Shown in pieces: positions 2,362 to 43,051 of a stretch of DNA of 64,000 bases; the first letter of the stretch is position 1; each line of letters begins with the position of its first letter. The position numbers and the translations under genes are program-made. Where the stretch lies: positions 5,892,001 through 5,956,000 of the forward strand of contig CM075996.1 in NCBI GenBank assembly GCA_038087875.1, read 5' to 3'. Under the pieces are notes generated by a model. It was not told where the DNA came from and made no database searches. It worked only from the letters and a program-made list of their open reading frames with translations. Origin of the DNA: Malacoraja senta. Its lineage: Eukaryota.

Positions 2362-3339
2362 TTAGATACATAGATACATAGAAATTAGGTGCAGGAGTAG
2401 GCCATTCGGCCCTTCGAGCCTGCACCGCCATTCAATATGATCATGGCTGATCATCCAACTCAGTATCCTGTACCTGCCTTCTCTCCATACCCCCTGATCC
2501 CCTTAGCCACAAGGGCCACATCTAACTCCCTCTTAAATATAGCCAATGAACTGGCCTCAACTACCCTCTGTGGCAGAGAGTTCCAGAGATTCACCACTCT
2601 CTGTGTGAAAAAGTTTTTCCTCATCTCGGTCTTAAAGGATTTCCCCCTTATCCTTAAGCTGTGACCCCTTGTCCTGGACTTCCCCAACATCGGGAACAAT
2701 CTTCCTGCATCTAGCCTGTCCAACCCCATAAGAATTTTGTACATTTCTATAAGATCCCCTCTCAATCTCCTAAATTCTAGCGAGTATAAGCCAAGTCTAT
2801 CCAGTCTTTCTTCATATGAAAGTCCTGACATCCCAGGAATCAGTCTGGTGAACCTTCTCTGCACTCCCTCTATGGCTATAATGTCCTTCCTCAGATTTGG
2901 AGACCAAAACTGTACGCAATACTCCAGGTGTGGTCTCACCAAGACCCTGTACAACTGCAGTAGAACCTCCCTGCTCCTATACTCAAATCCTTTTGCTATG
3001 AAAGCTAACATACCATTCGCTTTCTTCACTGCCTGCTGCACCTGCATGCCTACTTTCAATGACTGGTGTACCATGACACCCAGGCCTCGCTGCATCTCCC
3101 CATTTCCTAATCGGCCACCATTTAGATAATAGTCTGCTTTCCTGTTTTTGCCACCAAAGTGGATAACCTCACTTTTATCCACATTATACTGCATCTGCCA
3201 AACATTTGCCCACTCACCCAGCCTACCCAAGTCACCTTGCAGTCTCCTAGCATCCTCCTCACAGCTAACACTGCCCCCCAGCTTAGTGTCATCCGCAAAC
3301 TTGGAGATGTTGCCTTCAATTCCCTCATCCAGTTCATTC
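2362..3339 (-). mobile_element. CR1/HER1-type LINE, 5' truncated (RT C-terminus + 3' UTR)
   Basis: ORF 2460-3341: ISKFADDTKLGG...WQMQYNVDK...[15 protein letters not shown]...FTQRVVNLWNSLP; tandem TAGATACA tail. Confidence 0.92.
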
Positions 3340-5179
3340 ATATTTTGTGTCTACCTTCGATTTAAACCAGCATCTGCAGTTCTTTCTTACACAAAGGGAA
3401 AATAATTTGCTGCCTTTACCTAATCTGGCCAACTTGTCCCTCGAGACACACGCAACAAGGTTGATTCTGAATGGGATCCAAATTGGCCAGCAAGTCACTA
3501 AAGATAGACACAAAATGCTGGAGTAACTCAGTGGGAGAGGCAGCATCTCTGGATGCTGGAGGGAATATGTTTCGGGTCGAGAGCCTTCTTCAGGCTGAGA
3601 GGCAAGGGAGAGGGAAACGAGAGGTAAGGAAGGGTAAGGTGTGAAAATGATAGATCAAAGGGGATGAAACTCAAGGAAAATATAGAATAGATCACGTAGA
3701 ATATATGTCGCTAAATATAGGATAGAATGTAAGAGAGGGTGATGATAGGATAAGTATAGAAGGAAGACAAAAGTGCTGGAGAAACTCAGTGGGTGCAGCA
3801 GCATCTATGGAGCGAAGGAAATAGGCAACGTTTCGGGCCGAAAACCCTTCTTCAGACAGAAGGAAAGCACTGGATGGGTCTGGAGGGGCGTGAATGGCAG
3901 CAGAACGATTAATGGTAAACCAGTTGGATTTGGTTAGGGAGGTGGTGCAGGGACGGTTCATGTCTTGCTGATTTCCTAATTTAATCCAACGTGAAGCATG
4001 TGCCTCTGGTTCCTTTCAGCTAAAACCTTAGCCGAGTTGGAGAAGTGGGACGAGGTGAAAACCAGTGAGAGGGTGAAGGACAGAAGACGGTCAGACGACG
4101 GCGACTCGGAGGTGAAGCTGCACAGAAACGTCTTTGTTTTGTCAGGACACAGAGTGGCAGCCAATGCAAACTCAGGGTATCGTCAAGAATTGGCCAATTC
4201 AAATTCAGGATAGGCGTCCCCTGTTTCGGAGCCAAATGACAACAGGGAAGGGAGCAACCAATGTTCAGGAAGACAAAGAACGTCCACCGACCCCAAGACT
4301 AATGTATGAGTGGGGGCAGGATCTCACCTTGGGAGAAGGGGACAACTCTGAACCGTCAGAGGCAGTGAATTGGTGTACAACAGGCAGATTGTTAAAGAAC
4401 CTCAGTCCCGTGGTGGTGCTAGGTTGCTGTCTTGGTCTGGAGCAACTGGTTGGAGAGGTCGTGGCAAGCAAGACAGCGAGTAGCCAGACTGTCCAAAAAT
4501 GGGGCCGTCTGTGAGATCTGTTAAGACCAACTCCCCTCACTCAATCTCCAAGGGACTCATTGAATCGCCAAGACCATGCCCCTCGTTGCTCACTGTTTGG
4601 TTTATCCACCCCATCTCAGTCAGAAGGTAACCACTGGAATATCTGGTAGGTAACCTCTGCCAGTGAAGGACTCCTGCCTTGGGGGGGGGGGGAGGCTGCA
4701 GAACAAAGACTGGAGGGATAGAAGCGACCTAGCTTGTCCTTAGAATCAAACATTTCACTGTTGCTTCTGATCAGTTTCCCACATCACACGTTGATGAAGG
4801 ATCAGCCCAGATTGATCTGACCATTGTTAGGTTTATGGTATTGGTCTCTGCATCTGGGGAGGGTCTTTAACTGCTCAGTTGCTGGGTTAAAATGTCGGAC
4901 ATCTATTTGACCACCCTAGAGATTCGTTCTCCCTCCCTGAACTCCCCGTCCAGTGACTCCCTACATATGGGGCTCATTACCTTTTAACCCCCCCCCCCCC
5001 CCGCCCTCCTCCTGCCTCACACTAGGTATCACTAACCCTTCACCTTGGACAGTTCAGAGATGTGCTGGAGGATCAGCCGTGATCCCCATAGACAAAAGTT
5101 CAGAACTAATCAGCTCTCAGCTGTAATATTTTAAAATCAATGTATTTCAATTAACATACAACTAAGTTCATAAAGAGTG

Positions 5180-6388: not shown

Positions 6389-8270
6389 GTAATGGTGTGG
6401 TGCTCGCCGTCACCCAAACCCACCAAGTTACTACTTTCCGGAAGTTTCTGTTATGTTTGTACAGTTGGAGAATTGGGAATTGCATTCGCAGAAATCACAA
6501 CAGAAATCACCACTTCATATCTCCATTAGTTCCTGTCCATAATTGCCCCAGAGGAGTTGAGGGTATGAGCTGCTGGAGTGGTGTTGTGGAGGTAGCATTG
6601 TGCTGTTGGCAGGGAGTGCTCAGAGCCTTTGGCCATAATGGATCAGGGAGCAACTTCATATTTCCAGGTCAGGATGATGTGCTGTTGGGAGGGGATCCTG
6701 CAAGTGGCGGTGCACCCAGCAACTGCTGCCCCCTGCTACTTGTGGGTAGACGTTGCAGGTCTGACAGGGGTTGTCGAGAAGCTTTAGGCAGGGGTGGCAA
6801 CGTGCCTGCAGTGGTTCACATCTGTGGAAAAGCCTGGGTTGATGTTTTTCAGAAATGTCCTGCACCCGATTGAGTCCGTTAACACCGCCTACACTGGTTA
6901 CCCTTCAGAAGAAAAGACGCAATGTGCTGGAGTAACTCAGCGGGTCAGGCAGCATCTCTGGAGAACATGAATGGGTGACGTTTCAGGTTGGGATCCTTCC
7001 TCAGACTAATTGTGGCAATAAGTGTGTGAAAAGGAACTGCAGATGCTGGATTATACCGAAGATAGATACAAAGTGCTGGAGTAACTCAGCGGGTCAGGCA
7101 GCATCTCTGGAGGAAAAGAATGGGTGACGTTTCAGGTTGGGACCCTTCCTCCAGACTGATTATGGTAATATTGATCAGTGGTCCTGGGGTGGACTCCCTC
7201 ACCATTCCACTTTCAGTCTGAAGGATGCCGTACCGAAATGTCACGCATCCTTTCCCTCCAGAGATGCTGCCTGACCCGCTGAGTTACTCCAGCACTTTGT
7301 ATCTATCTTTGGATTTTGGCAATAAGTTGATTGGTAAGAGGGCTGATTGATAGATAGACAAGAAGGTGAGCGAATGGAGTTGAAATTGTCAGGGTTGAGT
7401 TGGGAGGAAATGTTTTTGGAAAGTTGGGTGCAATCCAATGGGAGAATGGGATGGCAATTTGCCAATGAGAGCGTTTCAAGGTTAGTTGGAAATCATGGAG
7501 GTGAATTGCAGGAAAAGGCCGACTAACTTCTCAGGAATGTTTCTACGGCTATTTGGGTTCAGTTCAACTGTTCTTTTGGGATAGAAATTTGGGATTTTGT
7601 TTGGGGCTGTGACTTAGCAGAATATTAATGCTTGAAAGGAAAATAATTTAAAGAGTTCCTGTTCTTTTGGATAAGTCTATCTTCCCATTAAAGAAAAAGA
7701 CACAAATTGCTGGGGTGAGTCAGCGGGTCAGGCAGCATCTCTGGGGAACATGGATGGGTGACGTTTCGGGTCGGGACCCATCCTCTGGCTGATTATGGTA
7801 ATATTGATCATTGGTCCTTAGGTGGACCCCTCACCATGGCTGAGCAATGGGGCAAGAGACATCCATCCACCTCTTGCTTACACAGCCGAGTGTGCAAGAG
7901 GCCTTTCCCCTCCCTCCAAACCCCCTCCCCCCCCCCACACAAGTGATCACCCTGCGAAATAAACACTCCTTGATTGCTGGAGCAGGTTGTGTGATCGGGG
8001 AGATGTAGCTTCTTCCAGGCTGAAGGAACCGGGGCCAATTTTGCTCCCGACCTTCTGATCATTCCTTCGGGTTAAGCACAACACCAAGCTGGAGAACGTG
8101 ATGCAAAGAATGGAATGATATGAAGATGTTTGACCAGAGATCAATGTAAGATCTACAGTATACAATGCATTAAAGAACCTTCTGCTTCATACGGACCATT
8201 TTTAATGCTTGCTATGTTGGGGCAGGTGGAAACTAGAACCATACTGGACATGCAAAACCTTTCCAGCATT

Positions 8271-8408
8271 CTTCTTCTTGCGTGTGGCGTGCACAGCCTA
8301 AAGTTGTAGGACAACTTGTTCTATTTGATCTTATTTGTTTGTGCACACCAGGTTGATTGCATTCGTCGAAACAGGGCGGACCACGTGAAGGTTGCAATCT
8401 CCCACCCC
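8271..8408 (-). mobile_element. Short SINE headed by an HDV/CPEB3-like ribozyme fold, (AAG)n tail; copy 1
   Basis: TSD TTTCCAGCATT (8260-8270) / TTTGCAGCATT (8409-8419); 5' 54 nt forms a nested double pseudoknot; second copy at 9650-9786. Confidence 0.85.
8355..8408 (-). ncRNA. Minimal HDV-like (CPEB3-type) self-cleaving ribozyme, predicted
   Basis: GGGGUGG-GA-GAUUGCA-ACC-UUCACGU-GGU-CCGCCCU-GU-UUCGA-CGAA-UGCAAUC: P1 with G1-U wobble, P2 7 bp, P3 3 bp, L3 UUCACGU, J4/2 CGAA. Confidence 0.8.
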
Positions 8409-8565
8409 TTTGCAGCATTGATATTAGACAATAGACAATAGGTGCAGGAGCAGGTACACAAAAATGCTGGAGAAACTCAGCGGGTGCAGCAGCATCTATG
8501 GAGCGAAGGAAATAGGCAACGTTTCGGGCCGAAACCCTTCGTCAGACTGCCAGCACCGCCATTCA

Positions 8566-8880: not shown

Positions 8881-9649
8881 ATATTACCTGACTGAATCCA
8901 GTGTGTCATTTATGCTCTACAAGTGTTTTTACTTAAACTATTTTATTTTATAACTTAGGTGTGGGGAAGGGGAACGGCATTGAAAAGGTGAAATGTATTG
9001 ACCATTCCTGATTGTCATATAAGATGATGATGGAGACACAAAGAACTGGAGTTGCTGGAATCTCGTGTAGAACACAGTGTTAGAGTAAGTCAGTGGGTCA
9101 TGGATGAATGGAGGAGATAGATGGGAGTTGTTTGGGGTCCCAACCCTAAACATCACCTATCCAATTGCTCCAGAGTTGCTGCCTGACCCACTGGGTTACT
9201 CCAACACTTGGTGTTCCAAGAAAATCATAGGTCTTCTTAGAGTCATGCAGCCATTAGACGGATTACACCCTCACGCTCTCGATTTCCCCAACATATTGAC
9301 CCAACACCAATGACGTGTAACTTGGAGAACTGATTGAAAATGACGGCAATCTTGAGGATTGTGTTACCGTTTTTAAGATCACCTTCACCCAAACGTTGGT
9401 GTTTGGAGAACCATTTTCAGGTCAAGGCAAAAGATTCCTTTGCACAATTCACTGGTGTAGGGAGGCCGGTGAGAATGTCCGGCAGCTTCATAGAAGGTGC
9501 GATGTTTGTCAATTCCAGCACACTTGGCAGAACGCATCTCAGTCAAGGGTCGAAGCCTGTTTCAACATTGAGTAACAATCGCACCTCTACAACAGCTGCA
9601 AATGGGAAGTCAGGTCTTCTACAAAGGAGATGACACAAAATGCTGGAGT

Positions 9650-9786
9650 CTTCATCGTCTTGCGTATGGTGTGCACAGCCTAAAGTTGTAGGTCAACTTG
9701 TTCTATTTGAACTATTTGTTTGTGCACGGTTTGTTTGCATTAGTCGAAACAGGGTGGACCATGAGAAGGTTGCAATCTCCCACCCC
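9650..9786 (-). mobile_element. Ribozyme-headed SINE, copy 2, inserted into a Penelope-derived repeat
   Basis: Perfect 11-bp TSD AATGCTGGAGT (9639-9649 / 9787-9797); homologous to 8271-8408. Confidence 0.85.
9733..9786 (-). ncRNA. Minimal HDV-like ribozyme, predicted, copy 2
   Basis: GGGGUGG-GA-GAUUGCA-ACC-UUCUCAU-GGU-CCACCCU-GU-UUCGA-CUAA-UGCAAAC; P1 U-G becomes U-A, catalytic C retained. Confidence 0.7.
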
Positions 9787-12700
9787 AATGCTGGAGTAAC
9801 TCAGCGGGACAGGCAGCATCTCTGGAGAAAAGGAATCTAGTGCTTTGGTTTAGGACCCTTCTTCAGTCTGAAGAAGAATCCTGACCCAAAACGTTGACTA
9901 TCAATGTTCTCGGGATGCTGCTTGACCTGCTGAGTTACTCCAGCACTGTGTCTTTTTTTGTATACCAGCAGAGTTAGGCCATTCAATCATGGTGGATCTA
10001 TCTTTCCTTCTTAACCCCATTCTCCTGCCCTCCCCATAACCCCCGACACCAGTACTAATCAGAAATCTAGCTATCTCTGTATCGATCTATTTCTTGTTTC
10101 TACATATAGTGTTAAACAGGAAGAATGAGCATTTTGGCAAGTTGCCAGGTGCCATAGATACTGTGGAAATTGAGGAACTGGACTCCAGCATGAATCCTGA
10201 AGTTTATAATCCAGTAGAAAGTAATGTAACACTCCACCCAACACTGGGTTCCACTCCACTCCACCATATAGACAGAAAGCCACGGACTCACACAGGAGCC
10301 TTCCAGCTTCAGGATCATTGTGAATTACTCATTGTTTTTGTTTTTAAACTCTCAGACAAAGGGAGGAATTAGCTCCAGCCTCCACCCAAGGAATGGTGTA
10401 TATTAACGGCTTCTGCCCTGGGGTTCCTAATATATCTGCCAAGCCAATCTTTAACCATAAATCAATTCCAAAGCGTGTCTGATGCCTGATGTGTTTTTAA
10501 CTTCACCTTTAGTGAGCTCAAAACATGTGGCCTTGGCTTTGCCAATACAATGCCCGTTGGGTAAAACCGGTTACAATCAGCCGACACCAACAGCATCATG
10601 GTGAACTTCACACAGAATCACAAGATCGTGAAATGTGTTCTCCCACAAATTAACAGGTTTGCGGAACAGACTCTGGGCGAGTAGTTAAAGGTGCATGAAT
10701 TAACGATTAAATGAGAACTGCACTGATATTGTGATTGAATATTAGAAGAGACTAATGATCATTATCTGGCAAGGTGAAGTGTCCATGGATGGTGTAATGT
10801 GCCTCAGGGTCCAGGAGTTCATCTGAATAGAAAACAGAAACTAGTTCATTCAGTCGTCTTGTCTGTAACCAGACACACAGGTTGAGTAGTGTAAGGAAGG
10901 AACTGCAGATGCTGGTTTACACCAAAGATAGACACAAAACGCTGGAGTAACTCAGTGAGATAGATAGCATCTCTGGAGAGAAGGAATGGGTGACATTTCG
11001 AGTCGAGACCATTTCTTCAGACTGAGAGTCAGTGGAGAGAGAAACTGGAGATATGGAAGGGTAAGGTGTGAAAACGACAGATTGAAGCAGACATGGTCGG
11101 AGAGCAGAGGGGGAGTAGCGAGAGAGGGCATTGAGTTAGTTTACACGAGAGACTGTGAGACGCTCCGGAGAATGTTCACGTTTCAAAGAGATCAAAGAGA
11201 ACCAGCCCTGAATGAGTGTTCAAGTCCCCGATGACACGAGGTTTTTTTCCCCGAAGAGGAAAGTTCCAGGAATGGAGATTGAAGCAAAACGTGATTGGAA
11301 GCAGAGCATAGATGTGGTGGGACAAGGGGTGGATATTAAAGAATTGGGAGAGTGGTGGGGTATTAATGGCTGTGGGGAGTGAGAGGCAGTGGAGTTTGAC
11401 TCTAGCTTATCAAAGGATATGAGAGTGAGGGGAAGACCATGGATTACCAGGGGTAATGGATAAATAGACTTCCCCTAAGTAGGATGTTGAATAGGTTGGA
11501 GAGAGTGAGGTTAGACTTGGTTGGATATTGATAATGAGGGAAACAGTAGGAAAATTGGGATATTAAAGAGAATGGGAGATTGTTAAGGAGAATGGGATGG
11601 TGATTTTTTGGTTAAACTCCTGGTATTCCAAAAGCAATATATTTCAGATGCTGGAAATCTGAAATAATAACAGAATATGCTGGAGATACTCAATTGGTCT
11701 TTCAAGAGAGAGCTAGTTAGGGCTCTTAAAGATAGCAGAGTCAGGGGATATGGGGAGAAGGCAGGAACGGGGTACTGATTGGGGATGATCAGCCATGATC
11801 ACATTGAACGGCGGTGCTGGCTCGAAGGGCCAAATGGCCTACTCCTGCACCTATTGTCTATTGCCTATTGGTCAGGCAGCATCTGTGGAAAAAGAAACAG
11901 AATCAACGTTTTGGGTCTAAAATCCTTCATCAGTAGCAAAATAAGGGAGAAAACAAGTTAGTTTTAATTCCCTTTGTCTGATCCATTCACCAGCACCTTC
12001 TCTGAAACTTGTGACTACTCATTTTCTCACTTTTCCAGTTCAGATGAAAGGACTTTGACTTGCAAAGTTAACTTGGTTCCACAATCCAGAGATAAGTACA
12101 AATCCTACCATAATATCTGACGAATTTAAAATCAGATTTATTTAAATAATCTAGAATTAATTTAAAATCACAGCACTACTGTGCTGTCATAAAAAAGGAA
12201 ATCTGCCTCCTCTGGAGTCAAGGGTGTGTTATTGTCATCTGTCCCTGATAGAACAATGGAATTCTTACGCACAACAAACAACCCAGTGATGAGGTATATT
12301 TGATCCTAAATTCACAATGGTGTGATGATTTTTAACCATCCTTTAAAAGGAACCAGGAAGCATTCATCTCAATGACTATCGCTGTGCTAAAGCAGGTAGA
12401 TCAGTTAGCATTGGCCCTGGATCCAGACACGCCCAACCCAACCTTACAAAGTTCTCCTAAGGAACTTCTGGGGACTTAGGGAGTGTGTCACAGGCTTGCC
12501 CGTCTGCCAGACTCGTAGAAGTATTTTAAAATGCCACAAGCCAGATGCCTTCATCATAATCCCAGGGTGGCTTTGTCCTAGTGAAAAAACAGAGCCACTA
12601 GAAGTGGTAGTGTGAGGATGTTCTCAACACTTTGAGGTACCAGGACAAGCACAGGCACTGAAAACTGCTGATCATCCCATGTTCTCATATTTCCTTACAC

Positions 12701-13521: not shown

Positions 13522-15687
13522 GTTCGGTTTGTGGTCTGCAGAACAGCTTGCCAGAATAACACCAGGCATAACCAACAAGTGAGGCTACAACCTGGCACAG
13601 CTAAAATACATGAACCCTGTAGAGAAAAACAGCAAGAAGAAACAGCATGCAATACCACGACCAGCAGGCTGGAGACTCTGAAAACCTATCATCTCATTAT
13701 AAACATTAGGAGGGAAACGCGAAAAACAGCCAACAAGCGGCGGGGACTCCAAGAACAACCCCATCCTCAATAATCATGGAACTGTGAATGGTAAGCCTGA
13801 AAATATGTGTAGCCATTTACAGCCAAGGTATGAAGTGATTCCTCCTGAGCTTCCGCCACTGGCCAATTCAATTCACAGGTGTCAGGGGTTATGGGGAGAA
13901 GGCAGGAGAATGGGGTTAGGAGGGAGAGATAGATCAGCCACGATTGAATGGCCCAGTAGACCTGATGGGCCGAATGGCCTAATTCTGCTCCTATCACCTA
14001 TGAACTTCAAGTGAAACCAGGAAGTATGAGAGAGCAGGGGACAGAGCAAAAGACCCGGCATCACACAACTTGTATGTTACAGAGCTGAAGACTTGCGCCT
14101 GAGAATGAGCTGTGTTAAGATGCTCAATACTCTTGGTGGCATTTTAACAGGCAAAAAAACAAACTGTTGGAGGAACTCAGCGGGTCAGGCAGTGTCTGTG
14201 GAGGGAATAGGCAGGCCCTTTTTTAGGTCGGGACCCTTCTTCAGACTGAAGGAGATGGGGAATAATGGACAGATGGAACTATGTAGGGGAGGGGAAGGAG
14301 GAGAGGTTTGATTTAACAGCCAGTTCTTGTGATGGAACGGGTTATAAGTTACAGGGCACCAACTGATATCTATTGAGAACACATTGAGGACATCTCTTGT
14401 CCAGAGTAGGGGAATCGAGGTCCAGAGAATATTGTTTCAAGGTGAAGGGGAAAAGATTTAATAGGAATCCGAGGGGTAACTTTTTCACACAAAGGGCGGT
14501 CGGTGTAGGGCCAGAGCTGCCAGAGGAGGTAGTTGAGGCTGGGACTATCACAACGTTTAAGAAACAGTTAGATAGGTAGGTTTGGAGGGATATGGACCAA
14601 ACGCAGGCAGGTGGGACTAGTGTAGCTGGGACATGTTGGCCGGTGTGGGCAAGTAGGGCCTGTTTCCACGCTGTATCACTGTTTGACACTGGGAAGCCAA
14701 TGAGCCCGAAGTGTGCCATAGTTAAGTGTAAGACAGAAACAAAATGCTGCAGTAACTCAGCGGGACAGGCAGCACCTCTGGAGAGAAGGAATGGGTGACG
14801 TTTCGGGTCGAGACCCTTCTTCAGACCCAAAACGTCACCCATTCCTTCTCTCCAGAGATGCTGCCTGTCCCGCTGAATTACTCCAGCATTTTGTGTCTAT
14901 CTTCGATTCGGGTCCGAGATAAGTGGAGACATAGAAAATAGGTGCAGGAGTAGGCCATTCGGCCCTTCAAGCCAGCACCGCCATTCAATGTGATCATGAC
15001 TGATCATCCAGAATCGTTCTTCAGTCTGAAGAAGGGTCTCGACCCAAAACATCACCCATTCCTTCTCTCCAGAGATGCTGCCTGACCCGCTGAGTTACTC
15101 CAGCATTTTGCGTCGACGATCCAAAATCAGTACCCCGTTCCTGCTTTCTCCCCATACCCCTTGATTCCGTTAGCCCCAAGAGCTAAATCTAACTCTCTCT
15201 TGAATACATCCAACGAATTGGCCTCCACTGCCCTCTGTTGCAGAGAATTCCACAGATTGACAACTCTCTGGGCTCGCAGGCATTGATGCCTGGAGGCATT
15301 GAAACCTACCTATCTAACTGTTCCTTAAACGTTGTGATAGTCCCAGCCTCAACTACCTCCTCTGGCAGCTCTGGCCCTACACCGACCGCCCTTTGTGTGA
15401 AAAAGTTACCCCTTGGATTCCTATTAAATCTTTTCCCCTTCACCTGGAAACAAAGTTAGATGGTTATCGGAAGTAATCTGATGAGGGGGGGTCTCAAGTC
15501 GAAACATCGCCCATCCCTTCTCTCCAGAGATGCTGCTTGTCCCGCTGAGTTACTCCAGCTTTTTGTGTGTGTCTTCGGTTTAAACCAGCGTCTGCAGTTC
15601 CTTCCTACACTCTTCTCACATATTCATTGACGTCTGGAAAGTGCCGATGTCAGCTGATTGTGCTGACCGGGCAGTCGGACCCTGCTC

Positions 15688-15694
15688 TATAAAA
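15688..15694 (+). promoter_or_regulatory. TATA box of DHDH
   Basis: TATAAAA in a small CpG-rich patch ~50 nt upstream of the DHDH ATG at 15740. Confidence 0.6.
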
Positions 15695-15739
15695 CCGCGC
15701 CGAGGGCACCGCGGCCGGGAGATGGGATTCACACCGGCC

Positions 15740-15871
15740 ATGGCCACTCGCTGGGGCATCTGCAGCGCCGGCAGAATCTGCCACGATTTCATGGTGGCTC
15801 TGAAGACCCTGCCGGACACTGACCACCAGGTACACAGAGACAGAGAGAGACAGAGACAGAGACAGAGAGAC

Positions 15872-15958
<87 letters not shown>

Positions 15959-15983
15959 TACAGAGAGACAGAGACAGAGAGAG

Positions 15984-16058
<75 letters not shown>

Positions 16059-16082
16059 CAGAGACAGAGAGAGAGAGACAGA

Positions 16083-16125
<43 letters not shown>

Positions 16126-19100
16126 GGCAGAGGTAGGGAGAGAAGGAGAGGAGAAGGGGGGGGAGAGTCACAGGATGGGGGGAGAGCAGAGGAGAGGAGG
16201 AAGAACGGGTGGGAGGGGAGAGTCGGAGAGGGGGAGGAGGGAGTGGAGATGAGGGGGGGAGTCAGGGGAGGGGGAGAGAGTCAGAGGAGGGCCCAGAACC
16301 AGGGGCCACAGTTTAAGAATAAGGGGTAAGCCATTTAGAACGGAGACGAGGAAACACTTTTTCACGCAGAGAGAGTGGTGAGTCTGTGTAATTCTCTGCC
16401 TCAGAGGGCGGTGGAGGCAGGTTCTCTGGATGTTTTCAAGGGAGAGCTAGATAGGGCTCTTAAAGATAGCGGAGTCAGGGGATATGGGGAGAAGGCAGGA
16501 ACGGGGTACTGATTGGGGATGATCAGCCATGATCACATGAATGGCCTACTCCTGCACCTATTGTCTATTGAGAGAGAGGGGGCCAAGGGGGGAACTGGAG
16601 AGTGAGGGACGGGGGGGGGGGGGGGGTAGAGGAAGATGGAGTGCGAGTCAAGAGGGTGAGAGAACGGGAGAAGAGAGGGAGAGTCAGTGGACAGGAGAAC
16701 AGGGAGCGAGGGAGGCAGAGAGAGGGAACGAAAATACAAACAGAAGAAGCGACACGTGGGGAAGAAGGAGCCAGCAGGAGGTGGAAGAAAACCAGGGGAG
16801 ACAGAAGGGGCGGCGTGAGGGAGGGGGTGGGAAATGCGTGGAGTGTGGGGGCGAGTGATGGGAGTGAAGCAGGAGGGGATTAGGGAGGAGGCGGTGATTC
16901 TTGCATTGGAGGTGGATCTGAGCGGGGACGGGGTTTAGGGACCCTGTCTGTCCCGCTGTGTTACTCCAGCATTTTGTGTCTATCTACCGTTCCACGGTTG
17001 GTCTGTGGTTCTGTGTGTCCACGGGATGTTTGATCGGGAGGGGTAGGCAGGGGGGATACTTGGGTCTCCACCACCTCACCTTTAATGTTACCAGTGCCCA
17101 GTGAAGTCTTTGGTTGCCGAGTGTACATGTAGCGATGGGGCTCGGAGACCACTCTGGAGCACATCTCTGTGCTAAAACATCACTCATTCCTCAATAGACA
17201 ATAGGTGCAGGCCCTTCGGCCCTTCGAGCCAGCACCGCCATTCAATGTGATCATGGCTGATCATTCCCAATCAGTACCCCGTTCCTGCCTTCTCCCCATA
17301 TCCCTTGAGTGCTATTTTTAAGAGCCCTATCTAGCTCTCTCTTGAAAGCATCCAGAAAACCTGCCTCCACCGCCCTCTGAGGCAGAGAATTCCACAGACT
17401 CACCACTCTCTGGGAGAAAAAGTGTTTCCTCGTCTCCGTTCTAAATGGCTTACTCCTTATTCTTAAACTGTGGCCCCTGGTTCTGGACTCCCCCAACATC
17501 GGGAACACGTTTCCTGCCTCTAGCATGTCCAAACCCTTAACAATCTTATATGTTTCAATGAGAACCCCTCTCATCCTTCTAAACTCCAGAGTGTACAAGC
17601 CCAGCTGCTCCATTCTCTCAGCATATGACAGTCCCGCCATCCCGGGAATTAACCTTGTAAACCTACGCTGCACTCCCTCAATAGCAACCCTCCTCTCCAG
17701 GGATGCTGCCTGTCCCGCTGAGTTGCACCAGGTTTTTGTGTCTATCTTTGGTTTAAACCAGCATCTGCAGTTCCTTATCTATGTATGTCCTTATCTATGT
17801 ATCTCCCTCAGTCTGAAGATGGGTCTCGATCCAAAACGTCACCCATTCCTTCTCTCCAGAGACGCTGCCTGTCCCGCTGAGTCACTGCAATGTCTTATTC
17901 TCTCCCCAGGCTGTGGCCGTGGCCTCCCGAGACTCATCGCGAGCTCGAGACTTTGCAAAGCGGCACCAAATCCCCAAGTGCTACGGTTCCTACCAGGAGC
18001 TGGCGAATGATCCCAACGTGGGTAAGGACGACCGGGACCTCAGCAATGCCAGCATATCTTAGAGGCCCCAGGGATTAGGTTAAGCATCTTGGGTTTTACT
18101 CATTCAGCAGCTATGGGAATTGCTCGGGTAAGCCAGCATTTATTTACAGATTTGTACAGTGGGTGGCTGGAACACGCTGCCTGGGGTGGTGGTGGAGACA
18201 GATGCAATAGGATTTCACATGGATATGCAAGAAACGGAGGAGTGCAGACCACGTGAAGGTAGATGGGATACGGTAAGTAGATGGGTTTCCAAACACTTTA
18301 ACTCCCCTTCCCATTCCCACACTAACCTTTCTGTCCTGGGCCTCCTCCACTGTCAGTGTGAGGCCAAATGCAAATTGGAGGAACAGCACCTCGTATTTTG
18401 CTTGGGCAACATACACCCCAGCGGTATGAATAATTATTTCACTAACTTCAAGTAACCCTTGCATTCTCTCTATCCCTCCTCCACCCTAGTCGTCGTCCTA
18501 CTAGTTTCATTGTCATCCTCCTTAGTTTCACTGTTTGTATCCACTCGTTATCACCTTCTCCCACAGCCAACAATGGACCATTGTGGGCTCCACCTTTATT
18601 TGATCACCGTTGCTGGCTTTGATTTGCTGGCTTCATACCTTTCATTCATTTGTTCTTTGTACCTTTTCATATCTCTAGTCTTCCTCTCCCCTGACTCTCA
18701 GTCTGAAGAAGGGCCTCGACCCAAAACGTCACCTATTCCTTTTCAAGAAGGAACTGCAGATGCGGGAGAATCGAAGGTAGACAAAATTGCTGGAGAAACT
18801 CAGCGGGTGCGGCTGCATCTATGGAGTGAAGTAAATAGGCAACGTTTCGGGCCAAAACCCTTCTTCAGACAGCTTCGTCTGAAGAAGGGTTTCGGCCCGA
18901 AACGTGGCCTATTTCCTTAGTTCCATAGATGCTACCACACCTGCTGAGTTTCTCCAGCAATTTTGTCTATCTATTCCTTTTCTCCAGAGATGCAGTCTGG
19001 CCCGCTGTGTCCCTCCAGCATTTTGTGTCTATATATTTGGGATGAGTTAAAATCTGTACCATAGTCAGCATGGACAATGCAGGTAAGGGGTCTGTTCTGG

Positions 19101-22100
19101 TGCTGTTCAACGTTTTATGTTTTATTGAATATTCATAACTTTGCGCTACTTGAGAGTCACCGTGATGAAGCTCCAATTTCCATGATGTTTGACTCCATGG
19201 CATAATGGTTCCACAATGTCTTTGGCAGACATCGTCTATGTGGGGACCATTAACCCCCAGCACCTGAAGGTGGCCCTGCTCATGCTGCAGGCAGGCAAGA
19301 ATGTCCTCTGTGAGAAGCCCATGGCCATGAATCTGAAGGAGGTCCAACAACTCATCTCTGCCGCCCGGAAATGCAACCTCTTCCTCATGGAGGTGAGCGC
19401 ACTCGCAACAGCCGCTCAAAAACGCTACGCCGGAAACAGACGAGGTGGGAGCTAGAAGTTTAGTTCAGAGATACAGCGCGGAAACAAACCCTTCGACCCA
19501 CCGAGTCCATGCCGACCAGCGATCCCCGTACACTAGCACCCTTCCACACGCTGGGAACAATTTACATTTTTACCAAAGCTAATTAACCTACAAACCTGTA
19601 CGTCCTTGGAGTGCAGGAGGAAACTGGAGCACCCGGAGAAAACCAACGCAGGTCATTTGAATAACCGGAAGTTCAATAATTTCCCATTTCTAGTGCCTGA
19701 CACTCACTAACAAAGCAGGAATTAGAAAAATGAGTAAAACTATCTCTATATTACCCCATCATCCATTCCCATGGTTGGTACAGCAAGGGGAAATTACATA
19801 GCTTCCTGCCAAAACAAAAATTCAACATTGGTTAGATTAAACTGTCCATTGCTCCCTTGTGCAAAATAATTAAGTTCTCTATCTGCAACATCCTAAACAT
19901 ATTGTAAATGTCTGTCCTGCTGAGTTACTTTTGCAGAGATGCTGCATGTCCCACGGAGTTACTCCAGCATTTTGTGTCTATCTTCGGAGTAAACCAGCAT
20001 CTGCAGTTCCTTCCGACACAAATGTTCATACACAACTGCTTTGTAGATTAGATTCCAGAATATCAGAAATCAGAAAGATTATATGCTGTATGCGACGGCT
20101 GATGGGGTGCACAGCGAGGACAGGGGGGACTCTGTCCCTGTTACAAAATGGGAGGAGGGGGAGCAAGAGCGGAGCTGCAAGATATCGAGGAAACCCTTGT
20201 GAGAGCCTCATCTATAATGGAAGAGGGGAACCCGTTCCCTAACGAATTAGGACATCTCCGATGACATGGTATGGAACACCTCACCTTGGGCACAGATGCA
20301 GCGTAGATGAGGAATTGGGAGTAGGGGATAGAGTCTTTACAGGACGCGGGGTGGGAAGAAATGTCATCAATGGGAGTCGGTGCGTTTATAATATATACAG
20401 TTGATAGTTTGTCTGTTGTGATGGAGACGGTGACATTACGAAACCGTAGGGAGATGTCGGAGAGGGTCCGTGTGAATTTTAGTGCAGGATGGAGATTAGT
20501 ATTAAAGTTAAGTCGGTGAGTTCTGCATGGGTGCAGGAGGTAGCACCGATGCAGTCGTCAATGTAGCGGAGGTAGAGTTTGGGGATAGGGCCACTGTACG
20601 CCTGGAACAGCGATTGTTCGACGTACCCTACAAAGAGTCAGACATAGCTGGGGCTAATAGCTACACCTTGGATTCGGAGGAAGTGGGAGGAGTTGGAGAA
20701 GTTGTTATGGGTAAGGTAGGTCGAGGAAAAAACAGTGGACTTTAAGACCTTCCTAGTGGGGGATGGAGGTATTACAGGCATAGCCCTTTTCAGCATCAAA
20801 AGCATCTACATGAGGCACTGCATCAAGAAGGCAACATCTATAATCAAGGATTCCCCCCCATCCAGGCCATGCCCTCTTCTCGCTGTTACCGACAAGCAGG
20901 AGGGACAGAGGCTTGAAGTCCCACACACTTAATTTCAAGGACACCAGTTACCCTCAGCAATCAGGTTCTTGAACCGACCTGCATAATCTTAATCCCATCT
21001 CAGCAACGGAACACTAGATCACCTCTTGAACTAGTTTTCTAATTGTTGGAGTAAAGAGGTCCTTCTGCAGTTGTACAGGGCCTCGGTGAGACCACATCTG
21101 GAGTATTGTGTGCAGTTTTGGTCTCCTAATTTGAGGAAGGACATCCTTGCTATTGAGGTAGTGCAGTGTAGGTTCATAAGATCATAAGTAATAGGAGCAG
21201 AATTAGGCCATTCAGCCCATCAAGTCTACTCTGCCATTCAATCATGGCTGATCTATCTCTCCCTCCTAAATCCAGTCTCCTTCCTTCCCTCCATAACCTC
21301 AAGACACCTGTACTAATCAAGAATCTATCCTGATATATCTTGGTGTAATCCCCAGGATGGTGGGACTGTCATGTGAGGAAAGATTGGAAAGACTGGGCTT
21401 GTATTCAGTGGAATTTAGAAGGATGAAGAGATCTTATAGAAACGTATAAAATTATAAAAGGACCTGACAAGCTGGATGCAGGAAAAATGTTCCCCATGAT
21501 GGGAGAGTCCAGAACCAGGGGCCACAGTCTAAGAATACAGGGGAGGCGCCAATTGGAACTGAGACGAGAAAAAACGTTTTCACCCAGAGTTGGAATTCTC
21601 TGCCTCAGAAGGCAGTGGACGCTGATTCACTGGATGCATTCAAAAGAGTTAGATGGGGCTCTAGGGGCTCATGGCATCAAGGGATAATGGGGAGAAGGCA
21701 GGCATAGGTTACTGATTGTGGATGATCAGCAATGATCACAATGAATGGTGGTGCAGGCTCAAAGGGCCAAATGGCCTCCTCCTGCACCTATTTTCTATCT
21801 TTTCTATTTCACAGTGATTTTTTTCTTGCAGTCTTTTCTTTTGGATTTACATGCAATTTATGAGTAATTTATGTTTTTGTGTGGTGTCTGAGTGTATATG
21901 CTACAAGCAAGATTTTTATCGATCCTGTACCTCTACAATAACAATGTGCATATGACAATAAACTGGACTTGGGATCCAATTTTCTCAAGACACGCAAGAC
22001 TATGGCATTGGGATCTGGAACCATGCATGTCTGCAGGTTGCAATTCAAATGCTAAACTAAATTTGACTCGTTAAAACAAGGTCACAGGCTTCCATTTATT

Positions 22101-24891
22101 ACATCTTCCCGACACGGGTCCTTTTGAGTTTTGTCTGTCATGTTTACAGGGTCTTTGGACACGGTTCTTCCCGGTCTCCCACAAGATTCGGCGTCTACTG
22201 TCTATCAATAATGTTGGAGAGATTAAAATGGTGAGGGCAGAGTTTGGCACGTGGATGCTGGGAACACCACGGCTGGTGGAGAAGGAGTTGGGTGGAGGAG
22301 TACTCTTGGACATTGGCTGCTACTGCCTACAGTTTGTCTGCATGGTGTTCAATGGCGAGAAGCCAGACTCTGTCCACGCCACAGGATTCCTCACGGAGAA
22401 AGGCAAGTGTGCAATGGACCGCTCTCCAAAGAGCAGTTCAAACCAAGCTCTCCCTTCCTCTATCCATATCGTTCTGAATCTGATAGTTTATCTGTCCACT
22501 GGGAGCAAGCTTCCTGATGCCATCTTACCTCTTGTATCGCTGCAGGTGTTGACGAAACAGTGACCATCATAATAAAGTACTCCAGAAAACGCATGGCCAT
22601 AGTAACTGTAACTATGGCATCACAGCTTCCCAACCAGGCAATCATCATTGGTACAAATGGCACAATCACGGTAACTCTCTCTACCTTTATACTGTGTACA
22701 ATACCATTCCTTGCTTTTGGATCCGTGTTGCTCTTACCCAAAACTGGCAGCTGCAACGTCTGTTGAGATTTGATGTTCTTTTCCCAAGAGATCATTAGGC
22801 TCAAAGTTCACTCTGTAGGACAGTTTTAGTCATGGGCTGGACACATGAATGCCATAGAGTGATACAGTATGGAAACAGGCTCTTCGGCCAACATGTCCCA
22901 GCTACACTAGTCCCACCTGCCAGCATTTGGTCCATATCCCTCCAAACCTGTCCTATCCACTTACCTGTCTGTTTCTTAAATGTTGGGATAATCCCTGCCT
23001 CAACTACCTCCTCTTGTTCCACACCATTTGTGTGAAAAATGTTACCCCTCAAATTCCTATTCAATCTTTCCCCTTCACCTTAAACCTATGTCCGCTGGTC
23101 CCCGATTCACCTACTCTAGGCAAGACTGAGCATCTACCTGATCTATTCCTCTCATCATCTTATACACCTCTATAAGATCACCCCTGAACCTCCTGTGCTC
23201 CAAGGTATAGAGTTCCAGCCTACTCAACCTAATTATCACTTACCAACTTGCACGCAGTCCCCAGTTTACGATCGACTGTCTTATGTACAGCCTGTTGATA
23301 CAATCAAGTGTTTGCGAGACCTGCAGGATGAATTTTCCAACTGCTGTAGGGCTGCAAGTGACTTTGTGACACCAACTGAATCTTGCAACCTTGAACCCAG
23401 GAAGAATACATTCTAGTTAACACTTTTACTTCAGAGATACAGCGCGGAAACTGGCCCACAGGGTTTTCACCGACTAACGACGCTACATTTATGAAACCAT
23501 ATACCTGCACCCCTCGTGCCCTGTTCTACAACAGTCCCCAGGGCTCTATCGTTTACCATGCAAGGCCTGTCCTGGTTTATCCTACCAAAGTGCAACAGCT
23601 CGCATTTACCTGTATCTACCACTTCTTGCCCCAGTTGATCCTGATCCCATTGTAACTGTAGATCACCCTCTTTGCAGTTCACAATACCACCAAATTTAGT
23701 GTCATCCACAAATTTGCCATCAACATTCACATTCTAATTATCAATATAAATAACAAACAATAGTGGACCCAGCTCCAATCTCTGTGGTACACAGGAAACA
23801 CAGATGAGAAATATTAATTTAACATCTCATCCAAATGGACTCATTGAACTTTCAGTGCAATTACCCCATTTAAATTGTAATTCACAAAATACTCCAGCTG
23901 TGGCCTTAGCAATGTTTCAGAGTTGTCTCAAGACCGCCATAAAATGCGAGTAGGATATGTGTAGGAAATGGGAAGGCTGTGGCCTAGCGTTTGGAGGAAG
24001 ATAGGAAAAGCAGAGTGACATATTGTGGGCAGACACACACACACAAACAAGACAAGACTTTTAGTTATATAGATGGCCAAATGGCTAGCTTACATGGGCA
24101 TCTTGGTAGGCATGGATGGGTTGGGCCAAAGGACCCGTTTCTGCTCTGTAAGACCATGAATTCAGCTTGGTCTAACCAATGTTTTATACAATGTCGGGAA
24201 TGCTACACCTTCTGCTCTGCCATTTATATTTTGTTCCAAGGTACCAGGGCACATGTGGTGTCCCACAAGCCTTATGGTCAATGGAGACAGAGAGGAGTTC
24301 CCACTGCCAACTCCATCTCAGCCCCTCAACTTCACCAACAGTACTGGCCTACGGTACGAGGCTGAGGAAGTAAGGCAGTGTCTTAAGAAAGGTAAATGAG
24401 CATCTGCCAAATACCACTTGCCAGTGCCTCTAAACATGCCGCACATCCTGTAGGATGCCCAGCACGCAAACTCTGTCCTGTCCACCATAGGGAGACATCC
24501 ATTGATTTAACAGGACACTTTTCCAGTGGTTTGAATTAAGTTGGGGGGGGGGGGAGGGGGAAGAGAAGAAGAGAGGAGGATAGGAAAAGGGGACAATATG
24601 AATCAAAGCTTCAAAATTACTGGTCTACTGAACCACCACATTATAGAGAGAACCGTGCCCATTTTTACTGAACTACCAGATTCAGATTGCGTTCCTCGAG
24701 TCGGTGCGAGTTAGTTCTCACTGCTTGTAAACGGAACCACGTGTGTAAGATATTTTGAGAGCAATTGTGTTTATGTTGCAGGACTGAAGGAGTGCCCCCA
24801 GCTGACACTGGCCGACAGCGAGCTGATCATGAGCATTCTAGACGAGGCTCGGCAGCAGATCGGGGTTGTCTACTGTCAGGATACAGCTTGA
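15740..24891 (+). CDS. DHDH: Trans-1,2-dihydrobenzene-1,2-diol dehydrogenase (dimeric dihydrodiol / D-xylose 1-dehydrogenase, Gfo/Idh/MocA family), 7 coding exons, 334 aa
   Basis: Exons 15740-15829, 17910-18021, 19229-19392, 22150-22402, 22546-22670, 24241-24391 and 24782-24891 (90+112+164+253+125+151+110=1005 nt) splice in frame: [17 protein letters not shown]...[25 protein letters not shown]...[11 protein letters not shown]...[12 protein letters not shown]...[12 protein letters not shown]...[12 protein letters not shown]...[12 protein letters not shown]. All introns are GT-AG except intron 4 (GC-AG). Confidence 0.95.
15835..16122 (+). repeat. (GA)n / (GAGACA)n microsatellite at the start of DHDH intron 1
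   Basis: Direct inspection. Confidence 0.95.
16292..16570 (+). mobile_element. CR1 LINE 3' fragment in DHDH intron 1
   Basis: CCAGAACCAGGGGCCACAGTTTAAGAATAAGG...CTATTGTCTATTG tail. Confidence 0.8.
17193..17686 (-). mobile_element. CR1 LINE 3' fragment in DHDH intron 1
   Basis: [23 protein letters not shown]...[14 protein letters not shown]. Confidence 0.85.
18278..18742 (+). mobile_element. Penelope-like element fragment: GIY-YIG endonuclease C-terminus + pseudo-LTR
   Basis: [24 protein letters not shown]...[12 protein letters not shown]...PSGMN, followed by the hammerhead-like repeat at 18703. Confidence 0.8.
19455..19655 (-). mobile_element. HE1-type SINE, 5' truncated
   Basis: Reverse complement of the V-domain/CR1-tail sequence (GGAAACTGGAGCACCCGGAGAAAACC; GATACAGCGCGGAAAC). 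Confidence 0.7.
20085..20660 (-). mobile_element. Penelope-like element reverse transcriptase fragment
   Basis: Minus strand [32 protein letters not shown] (YIDD motif). Confidence 0.8.
21048..21805 (+). mobile_element. CR1 LINE 3' fragment with nested short CR1 insert
   Basis: GAGACCACATCTGGAGTATTGTGTGCAGTTTTGGTCTCC ([13 protein letters not shown]) to the 3' UTR. Confidence 0.8.
22850..23232 (-). mobile_element. CR1 LINE 3' fragment
   Basis: Homologous to 13205-13521. Confidence 0.75.
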
Positions 24892-25289: not shown

Positions 25290-29095
<3,806 letters not shown>

Positions 29096-40300: not shown

Positions 40301-43051
40301 GGACTCGGTGAGCCGACGGGCCTGTTTCCATGCTGTACCTCTAAACTAAACACTGAGTAGACTCACTCACTGAGTCTGTGAAGCTGGCTGACGGCTGCTC
40401 TTCCCACACCTGCTCGCTGTCCTGTCACAACTGTTTCTGTGACAGGAGAGCGAGCAGATACTATACTTGCTCATTCCGGACCTGCAAATAGTCCGGTGTA
40501 CAAACAGCTCTTAGGAATGGAACTTGGTTTAACCTGTGCATAAATGTTTGAAATTGGCAATTCCTGGTGAGAGGCATTAGCAAAGGAAATGGCATACTGT
40601 GTTACATAAATACACATGGAATACAAAAGCAGGTAATATAGGAAACACTGGTTAGCTAAGCCATAACTGGGGCTTTCGGTCCAATTCCCATCACTACATT
40701 TTAGGACGGTTGTGAAGGTCCTGTAAAATGTGCAAAAAACATTTGCTTTAATGGTTGCAGGGACTGGGGATTTCAGCTCCAAGATTAGGTTGAAGAAACT
40801 GAGGTTGTTCTCCTTGAAGGTTGGAAGATTTGCTCAAGGTGCACAAGGCTATGATAGATAGGATAAATGGAGATTAGCTGTTCCCATTACTAGACTTCAG
40901 GTCGGGGGGAGTTCCCACCGCCACGGGTACCATGTAATCCCGTGCTACCTGCTCCATGGTTGGATAGTCGGCGACTAAACTGTCTCCCTCACCTGGCTTG
41001 CCAGGTGAGGGAGGGGGCTGTGGACCCCCAGCAGGACCAAAAACAAGACGTGTCAAAGGGCGGATGAGCTCCTAGCGAGCCAACGGTAGGAGTTGCGATC
41101 GTTGTCGTACATAGCATTGTAAAACACCGTGCCCGTTGATGTTTTCAACGATCATGATGATGATTAGTAGATGATTGGGGAAGTGCGAGGACAGAACTCA
41201 AAGTAATAGGGAAAAATTCGGGATGATGCAAAGGCATTGTTTTCTCTCTAAAAACACAGTGATTATGATTTTAAACACAATCTTTAAGAAGGGTGTAAAT
41301 GGAGGTAATCAGGAATTTTTGAGAGGGAGATATATTTTGGGGGAGGTAATAAATTGCAGTGCTCTAGGGTAAGAGGGGAGATATAGGACTGATTCTTTTT
41401 TAAAAAAGCAATTGGCAAAATGGCTTCTGTTTGTACTATAAAAATGCTATTAAAAAAAGAACCTGAAAGATTGCATTTAATAAAAGAGAACAACAATGTT
41501 GAACCTACCGGTGTGGACAAACATGTGCTTGGCATAGTTCTGTCTGGAGCTGAAAGTTTTCCCACACTGCGTGCATCCGTAGGGTTTTCTTTCGGCATCA
41601 CTGGAAATCGCTGGAACTGCCTGGCTTCCATCTGGGAATACCGGGGGATTCTGGCACGAGGGCTGTGCTGGAATGCTGGACACAGACGTCTGGGAGGTGG
41701 AGGCCAATGGTGGGAGATGATGGGACTGAGTAAGGCCCATTTGATAAAGGCTGCGGTGAGTAGTTGCGCCGGCTCCAGTGGGGTCTTCTTCAACATCATA
41801 TTGTGCAGAACAGCCCTGGTTACGTAGGTTGGATTGCATGGTCGAACCTGGGAGAAAGTCTTGCATGAATGTTGAAGGCCGCGGAAAAGAAGCATCAAGC
41901 TGCGACTTGCAGTCCGCTTTGCGATTTTGCGGTATGGCAGTGTCCTTCTCCTCCTTCTCTCCCTGCCAAAAGGACTTCAGTTCTTCTGGTAAGAGATCAC
42001 TGGCATTGAAAAATTCCATCTCATCTCCTTTGCTGCTCAAATTCAGATGACCAGCAGAGTCTCGTCGGTCCTCCAGTGCACTCTGGTTGGGGTTAAACGC
42101 ATTCGCCTCAGTAATTTCCTCGGTCTGTTCGTCTTGGTTGCCTTGCTGTGCGATTTGGTTGGAGACGGTTCGGACAGCGATGCTCTCGCCACAGTAAAGG
42201 AGATCATCGTCTTCTTCTTTGATGGTCACTTGACTTCCGTCAGCCATTTGAAGTCTGATTGGCTGCCGTTGCTTGCGGCTATGACTGCCCTGTGACAAAA
42301 GCCCCATCTCGGGCCGCTGGTTGGCTGCAGTATTGTACCAGATTCCACGCACCTCATTATTGCGGCCAGTCTCCATTAGAGTCAGGTTCTCCTGGTCGGT
42401 TATGACCTGCTCTCCAACTCCCTTCTGACGTGCTAATATTTGTTGCCTGCACAGAATGGGGACCATTTCTTCTGCCTTGTACCCACCATCACCTGTGGCT
42501 GTGTTCTTTGAACCTCCCTGTACAAAGTCAAACTCTCTCTCAGCAGTGTGGGGTGACAATGCTGTTTCAATAAAACCCATGGGAAACTTGTGGATCTGGT
42601 CGCCAGTGTTCTGGCAAAGACCCGCTTCCTTCTCATCGGAGAGGTCCATCTTTTGCTGGTCCCCCTGAGCTTTTTGTTGGGCATTTTGTGAAATGATCCG
42701 TGTGCACTCGTCGATTATGGTTTTAATCTGAAGGACACTCGCTGCCGTGAGGATCTGCAAAGCCTCCACATGAGAGACCATCAGTGAGCCACTATACATA
42801 AAATCCACTAGTCGTCGCAGAGTCTGGGCTGAGACCAGAGGTGGGACCTCAATCTCGCTGTAACCCAACAAGAGTTTATCGTGGAAAAAGGGGCTAGCTG
42901 CAGCCAAGACACAGCGGTGGGCTCGGAGAGCTGTGTTATGGATACGTACGGTTACATCGCAGAAATGACCACCCAGGCGCTGCGAGTTCAGCGTCTCCAG
43001 AAGGGACCTGCTGAAATTCTGAAGGTTGATGCTATGAAGTTGCTCAGCCAT
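37320..43051 (-). CDS. ZBTB45: Zinc finger and BTB domain protein 45 (ZBTB20/45 family), 2 coding exons, 599 aa, BTB + 4 C2H2 fingers
   Basis: Exon 43051-41509 ([37 protein letters not shown]...[26 protein letters not shown]) splices GT-AG to 37576-37320 ([35 protein letters not shown]...[16 protein letters not shown]). [16 protein letters not shown] and four fingers favour ZBTB45 over ZBTB20. Acceptor at 43080-43081; probable non-coding exon 1 donor at 44153-44154. Confidence 0.88.
39599..40350 (+). mobile_element. HE1-type (V-SINE) tRNA-derived SINE, split by the Harbinger insert
   Basis: Head GGCAGCATGGTGGTGCAGTGGTAG...GCCTTA, body GTACGGAGTTTGTACGTTCTCCC...CTCCGGTTTC, CR1-like 3' end GGGCCTGTTTCCATGCTGTA and CTAAA tail. 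Confidence 0.75.
39637..40125. mobile_element. Harbinger-type non-autonomous element, right end lost, inserted in an HE1 SINE
   Basis: Starts TTA|AGGGGCTGTCCCAC like the MITE at 1268; interrupts the HE1 tRNA-like head. Confidence 0.65.
40895..41162 (+). mobile_element. Structured short retroelement with (ATG)n tail (RTE/RTEX-related SINE?)
   Basis: Near-TSD ATTACTAGA / ATTAGTAGA interrupting an old CR1; several strong hairpins. Confidence 0.55.

Follow-up and report, generated by a model that had tools for sequence, protein, structure and literature searches.

A short non-autonomous retroposon of a likely Vingi-type LINE in Malacoraja senta, headed by a predicted HDV-type ribozyme without P4

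Introduction

The window analysed here, a stretch of 64,000 nucleotides from Malacoraja senta, contains two related short insertions, the second of which (copy 2) had been presented in a preliminary description as a ribozyme-headed SINE with structure-preserving variation, nested in a Penelope-type repeat. This raises the questions what kind of element copy 2 is, which LINE moves it, and whether its differences from related copies reflect selection on a ribozyme or decay. It is highly probable that copy 2 is a decayed example of a non-autonomous 140-nt retroposon, which consists of the first ~80 and the last ~45 nt of a 3.1-kb, likely Vingi-type LINE and carries a predicted P4-less HDV-type head that would cut at G1 and is likely crippled in this copy. 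This reading draws on a head and a tail shared with the LINE, on TSDs, on 5' ends at G1, on subfamilies and on covariation across sister heads. Copy 2 itself represents ordinary decay and the interest lies in the family. If the reading is correct, Vingi joins the LINE clades with 5' HDV-like ribozymes, an almost phage-only P4-less ribozyme is placed in a vertebrate genome with ~10^4 copies and natural variants, and the CPEB3 ribozyme receives a concrete, testable origin. Published work is cited by PMC number throughout.

Structure of the insertion

Copy 2 is 137 nt long and flanked by an exact 11-bp TSD, which bears out its earlier reading as an independent insertion (Table 1). As also described before, its 5' end is G1 of an HDV-like fold, the same as in copy 1, and the catalytic C is kept. 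Copy 1 lies 1,378 nt from copy 2, shows 87.9% identity and has a TSD at ~8260-8270 and 8409-8419, of which 10/11 positions match. All four listed differences between the copies are real: from copy 1 to copy 2, G32A changes a U-G into a U-A pair in P1, G45U changes J4/2 from CGAA to CUAA beside the retained C44, A23U and G25A give an L3 that reads UUCUCAU, and U53A in P2 gives an A11-A53 mismatch. Copy 2 is separated from the intact locus L051 by six substitutions and by the loss of 3 nt ahead of the tail repeats. For its 13-nt middle no convincing match was found among the LINE loci searched.

Table 1. Window coordinates of copy 2 and its parts, of copy 1 and of the host repeat.
Feature	Positions	Strand	Remarks
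Copy 2, non-autonomous internally deleted retroposon (likely Vingi-type), A32/U45 subfamily	9650..9786	-	
Predicted 54-nt HDV/CPEB3-type ribozyme head without P4, copy 2	9733..9786	-	G1=9786, C44=9743
LINE 5'-end-derived part of copy 2 (family nt 1-80)	9710..9786	-	97.5-98.6% to loci L319, L357
13-nt middle of copy 2	9697..9709	-	
LINE 3'-end-derived part of copy 2, with (AAG)n tail	9650..9696	-	tail common to 29/30 LINE 3' fragments
TSD, 3' side of copy 2	9639..9649	+	11 bp, exact
TSD, 5' side of copy 2	9787..9797	+	abuts G1 (9786)
Copy 1, G32/G45 subfamily	8269..8408	-	head intact under strict descriptor
Left stub of host Penelope-type pseudo-LTR repeat	9619..9649	+	
Rest of host: palindromic pseudo-LTR arm pair	9787..9960	.	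decayed minimal hammerhead cores

An 8-bp stem can be formed between family nt 62-69, which are head-derived, and the tail-derived nt 113-120, so that the full LINE RNA has a 5' UTR and a 3' end which are complementary. Such pairing could draw the ends of the LINE RNA closer and favour internal deletions.

The predicted ribozyme head

The family head is predicted to fold into the nested double pseudoknot of HDV-like ribozymes, built from a 7-bp P1 (1-7/30-36), P2 (10-16/48-54), a 3-bp P3 (17-19/27-29) and P1.1 (C22-G37), with registers that are partly fitted. It has a 7-nt L3 and a J4/2 with C44, and its G1 wobble pair coincides with the 5' boundary of the element. Majority letters in the family are U20 (46/48), G25 (39/48) and C44 (44/48). 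A canonical P4 helix is absent from the family head, and only a 5-nt loop is found where it would stand; the absence of P4 defines the minimal subgroup of HDV-like ribozymes (PMC10879173).

A structural descriptor, written after the element had been seen, recognised copy 1 with its strict rules, required relaxation of G25 and one P2 pair for copy 2, and had no match in 60 shuffled windows. With Rfam, no ribozyme match was obtained for copy 1 or copy 2 at E<=10 or at the gathering threshold, nor for the heads of loci L025 and L075. Nested-only folding, which is blind to pseudoknots and served solely for the misfold described below and for the 3' stem, gave weak z-scores of -0.2 to -2.1.

Related heads in the genome

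The Rfam CPEB3 model (RF00622) gave 59 matches in the genome, 39 of them above a cut-off of 35 and the best with 64.2 bits. Among the best 20 of these 39 loci, nine continue into the ORF of a second Vingi-type LINE, whose head is also found in three of the others, while the remaining eight fall into three short families. The second LINE was refetched in eight copies, which cover the protein nearly end to end. This LINE family, represented by L363-L390 (e.g. G000:C1:86602691, C21:8958189), is young-looking and includes full-length copies. Four short families in total, V3-V6, have CPEB3-like heads; V6 is formed by eight of twelve lower-scoring matches that were fetched, and its head is P4-less, with a P2 and P3 that differ from those of the family of copy 2. 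Six V6 copies (L391, L392, L398, L399, L401, L402) show four G's where the 3' strand of P1 would pair five and begin after the T that ends the TSD; V6 copies may lack G1.

Seven head types of the genome were compared for covariation, with one representative per family as a row; 4/22 loci gave no head under the anchor, and L371 was anchored on a neighbouring copy of the family of copy 2. In this comparison 112/119 cells are paired and 11/17 pairs are changed on both sides. Shuffles had a mean of 84.8 and a maximum of 97 and reached the observed level in 0/5000 cases, a control that overstates the support since the registers of the 5' strand of P1 and the 3' strand of P2 were fitted for best pairing, the heads are related and two of them are subfamilies of a single family. 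C22, G37 and a C-N-A-A joint are present in 7/7 head types and G25 in 6/7, the V5 representative having A25, and J4/2 reads CGAA, CUAA or CCAA. In HDV itself, the antigenomic ribozyme has CUAA and the genomic ribozyme CGAA in J4/2. Support for the fold comes from the head types across families, not from individual copies.

These data bear on the possibility that the head is mainly an internal promoter like Pr77 of L1Tc, with a start at G1 and a fold that is a relic or very slow. Pr77 has promoter activity and could set the 5' end without any cleavage (PMC3383444); the head has no P4, and thousands of dispersed copies are easier to explain by an own promoter. However, covariation across families involves P1, P2, P3 and the catalytic joint, the second P4-less family keeps the core with other helices, and activity in vitro is known for HDV-like ribozymes that lack P4 (PMC10879173). 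We regard a head that is mainly a promoter as unlikely; the promoter and ribozyme roles are not exclusive.

Size, subfamilies and decay of the family

A first-look search of the species' own genome (1.94 Gb) gave 2,586 candidates, of which 40 were scored. An exact 15-mer of the head has 7,211 matches in the genome versus 2 for the reversed control, and 34/59 loci that were picked by the 3' half of the element hold this 15-mer; together this indicates roughly 12,500 family copies, a rough estimate from a sample that favours well-kept copies. The suspicion that two neighbouring copies point to an abundant family was thereby confirmed, with at least 7,211 copies. The element was furthermore found, whole or partial, in 20 sequencing runs from 12 studies and nine organism codes, with no RNA data set listed among them; two of the runs may be the source of the DNA analysed here. 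The runs examined were contigs only, and their summed depth was not taken as copy number.

After removal of six duplicates from the 59 loci, 53 distinct copies remained, in 48 of which the 5' end lies at most 2 nt from G1; some family copies are 5'-truncated. A TSD of 7-16 bp abuts G1 at 76/104 distinct G1-start sites, 71 of these TSDs having 10-14 bp, compared to 1/104 in a control with mismatched flanks. At 61/104 insertion sites G1 is preceded by T, and the five positions further upstream are without such bias. Some loci (L005, L006, L020-L023, L031-L036; L192-L196) are single insertions that were copied along with the flanking sequence, in the manner of tandem or segmental duplications.

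The family is divided into the A32/U45 subfamily of copy 2 (19/48) and the G32/G45 subfamily of copy 1 (22/48), a third marker, G8A, lies in an unpaired joint, and the markers G8A, A32G and U45G are all located on tolerant sites. Private substitutions were counted in copies picked by the 3' half, and their rates were taken from rows with at most 3 gaps. Outside CpG they affect 45/1708 critical versus 5/314 free sites (p=0.33), and at CpG sites 11/135 critical versus 19/135 free sites (p=0.17). Among changed pairs 17 are kept and 26 broken, and every pair and core base is kept in 17/53 copies. As about one third of the sampled copies has an intact core, host transcripts may contain potential self-cleavage sites in the thousands.

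The claim of structure-preserving variation is therefore to be divided: the alternatives U-A/U-G and CUAA/CGAA are inherited subfamily markers, while the private changes of copy 2 are decay. Substitutions random with respect to paired and catalytic positions had been named beforehand as one part of what would refute the earlier reading. Across copies exactly this was found (p=0.33, as above), but it does not refute the ribozyme, because dead inserted copies should show such substitutions. Inserted copies decay neutrally, as expected of dead insertions, and copy-level covariation tests fail on retroposons since the signal lies between subfamilies and families.

Copy 2 illustrates this decay, as its head combines three lesions and has neither the U20-G25 pair nor an intact P2. 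G25A (9762), a CpG-type change, deprives the U20-G25 pair of its G, and in the antigenomic HDV ribozyme the corresponding mutant, U23/A28, is slowed 528-fold (PMC3386971, Table 1). U53A (9734) causes the mismatch in P2. Due to A23U (9764), nt 8-11 pair with nt 21-24 and replace P2 and P3 in the lowest-energy nested fold. From the rate of the HDV mutant, the P2 mismatch and the predicted misfold it is concluded that the ribozyme of copy 2 is likely crippled. The contrary reading, that selection keeps individual copies active, copy 2 included, and that their differences preserve the fold, could appeal to the fold-compatible changes G32A and G45U, to the retained C44 and to the natural occurrence of U23 in the sister family V4; set against the three lesions, the competing helix among them, and against copies in which critical and free sites are substituted equally and most changed pairs break, it is very improbable.

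The parent LINE

The parent was reached from the tail side, as a pattern made from the tail led to L261, a truncated coding LINE which ends in the tail of the element, and 29/30 LINE 3' fragments match the element from nt ~94 to its end. At the other end, L357 contains head nt 9-80 (98.6%), followed by an APE endonuclease (PF14529, E 2e-8), an RT (PF00078, E 1e-25) and, at the C-terminus, a Cys/His knuckle, a layout that spans ~3.1 kb; on four ORF pieces of L357 there was no Pfam match to RNase H. Head nt 1-81, RT and tail stand together in L319, one 1.6-kb insertion whose 11-bp TSD abuts G1, and head and ORF are connected in contigs of the runs X1, X4 and X8, which have three organism codes. 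L358 also carries the LINE 5' end. An uninterrupted full-length LINE from G1 was not recovered, L357 starting at nt 9 with an interrupted tail and L358 at nt 43. When negated patterns were used to look for a long element that begins with the family head (30/30 in one search; 30 loci read and 100 of 151 listed in another), only indel variants, truncated copies and chance matches came up.

Vingi elements are defined by a compact single ORF with APE endonuclease and RT and without RNase H (PMC13708176). The parent has this domain content, with APE and RT and no match to RNase H, and its single ORF rests on the homolog P0001 because the genomic copies are broken. P0001 has 1019 aa and is 72% identical to the parent LINE, and the closest database proteins are ~1000 aa long, contain APE and RT families only and lie on ~3.2-kb contigs. 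In the RT, P0001 shows 75% identity to the parent, 44% to the second LINE (sister V2) and 25-34% to RTEs. The branch joining the Vingi-like rows has support values of only 85/94 in an RT tree without named Vingi or Ingi references, a tree that lost RTEC_L275, RTEC_L276 and the CR1 row and in which RTEB_L140 is a long row, probably misaligned. Judged by these sequence comparisons, the parent is likely a 3.1-kb endonuclease/RT LINE of the Vingi clade.

The designation as SINE had to be abandoned: the head is a LINE 5' end and not a small RNA, and the tail is a LINE 3' end. In the element head there was no tRNA and no Rfam small-RNA match, i.e., none of the Pol III heads from tRNA, 7SL, 5S or snRNA by which SINEs are defined in the strict sense. 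As head and tail equal the two ends of a LINE, the element is a bipartite, internally deleted non-autonomous LINE, and like bipartite elements and SIDEs it has a 5' part (as in L357, L358 and L319), a 3' part, TSDs and 5'-truncated copies. The class of bipartite non-autonomous LINEs has known members in RTE, Ingi, Vingi and R2 (PMC5786205). Among the short derivatives of the parent there are at least two other deletion junctions (L246-L249, L251, L262), so the parent LINE shed short forms more than once.

In 7/30 truncated LINE loci (L336, L342, L343, L345, L346, L350, L352), two of which represent one duplicated site, head nt ~5-80 are inverted at or near the 5' junction, and L301 is a further case. 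Such inversions resemble those left by twin priming, here at an A-rich site close to nt 80.

RTE LINEs were considered as parents as well, and three RTE families, found via DUF6451 and a protein search, had other tails. An RTE LINE as source or mover of the element can practically be dismissed: RTE-B 5' ends have 19/21 nt over the 5' strand of P2, P3 and L3 in common with the head and RTE-A has an (AAG)n tail, but none of the three RTE tails seen matches the element, RTE heads have G22-C37 and a different P1, and the Vingi-type LINE matches both head and tail at 90-99%. The RTE 5' ends in this genome (L122:~1300, L125, L135, L136 and L147:~4516, element-oriented) show a compensated P1, the same P3 and the swapped P1.1 pair, with no distinct J4/2 or P2.

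Proposed mobilisation

In the mechanism proposed for a Vingi-moved element, a source copy would be read through from a host promoter and the ribozyme would cleave 5' of G1, freeing the element from the host transcript. The LINE protein would then bind the shared 3' tail in trans, nick the target and reverse-transcribe the RNA, and the insertion would leave a TSD of 10-14 bp. The inserted copies would subsequently decay neutrally. Selection on the fold would act only in few source copies, which would explain why only differences between subfamilies and families keep the structure. R2 SIDEs (PMC3414825) and NARTc (PMC4035085) work by the same model.

Relation to known elements and ribozymes

Ribozyme-headed deleted LINEs are already known (PMC3414825; PMC4035085; PMC6765202). 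The R2 SIDEs of Drosophila possess the same kind of 5' HDV-like ribozyme and the 3' end of their parent LINE, arose by internal deletion and are mobilised in trans (PMC3414825). In contrast to these elements, which are rare, rDNA-specific and belong to the restriction-like endonuclease class, the family described here is dispersed in ~10^4 copies in a vertebrate, belongs to the APE class and has a 54-nt head without P4. NARTc, RIME and SIDER, which are related to L1Tc/ingi, are likewise short derivatives of Ingi-group LINEs that keep a 5' signature of ~77-80 nt with an HDV-like ribozyme and a short 3' end (PMC4035085; PMC3383444). They differ in that the parent LINE here shows no RNase H, in the head without P4 and in length (140 versus 263 nt for NARTc), and ribozyme activity was shown for the trypanosomatid elements, whereas it is predicted for this family. 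The non-autonomous Vingi derivatives Vingi-1_EE, SINE2-1_ACar and SINE2-1_AMi are composed, as here, of the 5' and 3' parts of a ~3.1-kb single-ORF LINE (Kojima 2018, PMC5786205).

Among ribozymes, drz-Mtgn-1 and the theta ribozymes share the double-pseudoknot core without P4, but nearly 99% of the minimal HDV-like ribozymes are found in phages, many of them beside tRNAs (PMC10879173), whereas here such a head leads a vertebrate retroposon. The mammalian CPEB3 ribozyme (RF00622) has an identical L3 and GU junction, a single-pair P1.1 and a CGAA-type joint. The head of this element differs from it in the letters of P2 and P3, lacks P4 and has no match to the CPEB3 model, and the CPEB3 ribozyme is a single intronic copy under host selection, unlike a dispersed family.

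The 5' end of the crocodilian Vingi-2_Gav (Kojima 2018, PMC5786205 supplement) has the same L3 and the same junction of P1 and GU. By eye, it is close to the head of sister V2 and nearly equals the CPEB3 consensus, while with the family of copy 2 it shares the core only (L3, GU junction and joint). The human genome holds a trace of Vingi (PMC5753468), and a transposon origin of conserved vertebrate ribozymes by co-option has been suggested in a general form (PMC7761336). Given sister LINE heads that score up to 64 bits, the likeness of Vingi-2_Gav and the human Vingi trace, it is probable that Vingi LINEs and their mini-derivatives are headed by CPEB3-type ribozymes, among them 54-nt forms without P4 with ~10^4 copies in a vertebrate genome, and that the mammalian CPEB3 ribozyme represents a domesticated Vingi 5' end.

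The available parts of PMC10919898, PMC6326823, PMC4494074 and PMC5753468 contain no link between Vingi and CPEB3, and a literature search, with most subscription papers outside its reach, found no link of Vingi to ribozymes or to CPEB3. Vingi elements are under development as gene-writing tools, and in its accessible text a 2026 review mentions HDV ribozymes for R2 only (PMC13708176). As far as these searches reach, three points are new, namely Vingi as a clade that bears ribozymes, a vertebrate head without P4 and the resemblance between Vingi heads and CPEB3.

The host repeat

The family of the repeat into which copy 2 is inserted carries a minimal hammerhead core (CUGANGA/helix II/GAAA), and the window contains 12 such cores. 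In 5/9 motif matches the core stands behind a GIY-YIG-like endonuclease fragment, at a distance of 355-513 nt in four loci and of 1,102 nt in one. As the hammerhead core and its position relative to GIY-YIG fit pseudo-LTRs from Penelope-like elements with minimal type I hammerheads (PMC7761336; PMC6765202), the host is assigned to the Penelope type; in contrast to those pseudo-LTRs, it serves here merely as a landing site and the cores of the copy that hosts copy 2 are decayed. The earlier picture of an HDV-type element nested in a hammerhead-type element is thus correct as to the nature of the host, but the nesting occurs at chance rate: the host repeat covers 5.1% of the window and takes 6/104 insertion sites, which is no enrichment, and the landing of copy 2 in it is incidental. 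Another copy is found at the same position of a Penelope-type repeat (L239:~1500), and a decayed coding-like stretch lies beside the host repeat at 9210-9615.

Other features of the window

Elsewhere, the window encodes SNORD35 (Rfam, 55.8 bits) on the minus strand at 28390-28476, near an exon (26166-26609) that we take to be ribosomal protein S11. Further exons presumably belong to a dihydrodiol dehydrogenase (15584-22563, plus strand), a BTB zinc-finger protein (41477-43147, minus strand) and a THAP-domain protein (44914-48018). Two stretches on the minus strand are presumably remains of other mobile elements, namely a CR1-like RT fragment at 2460-3350 and a piece of a Tc1-like transposase at 61907-62272.
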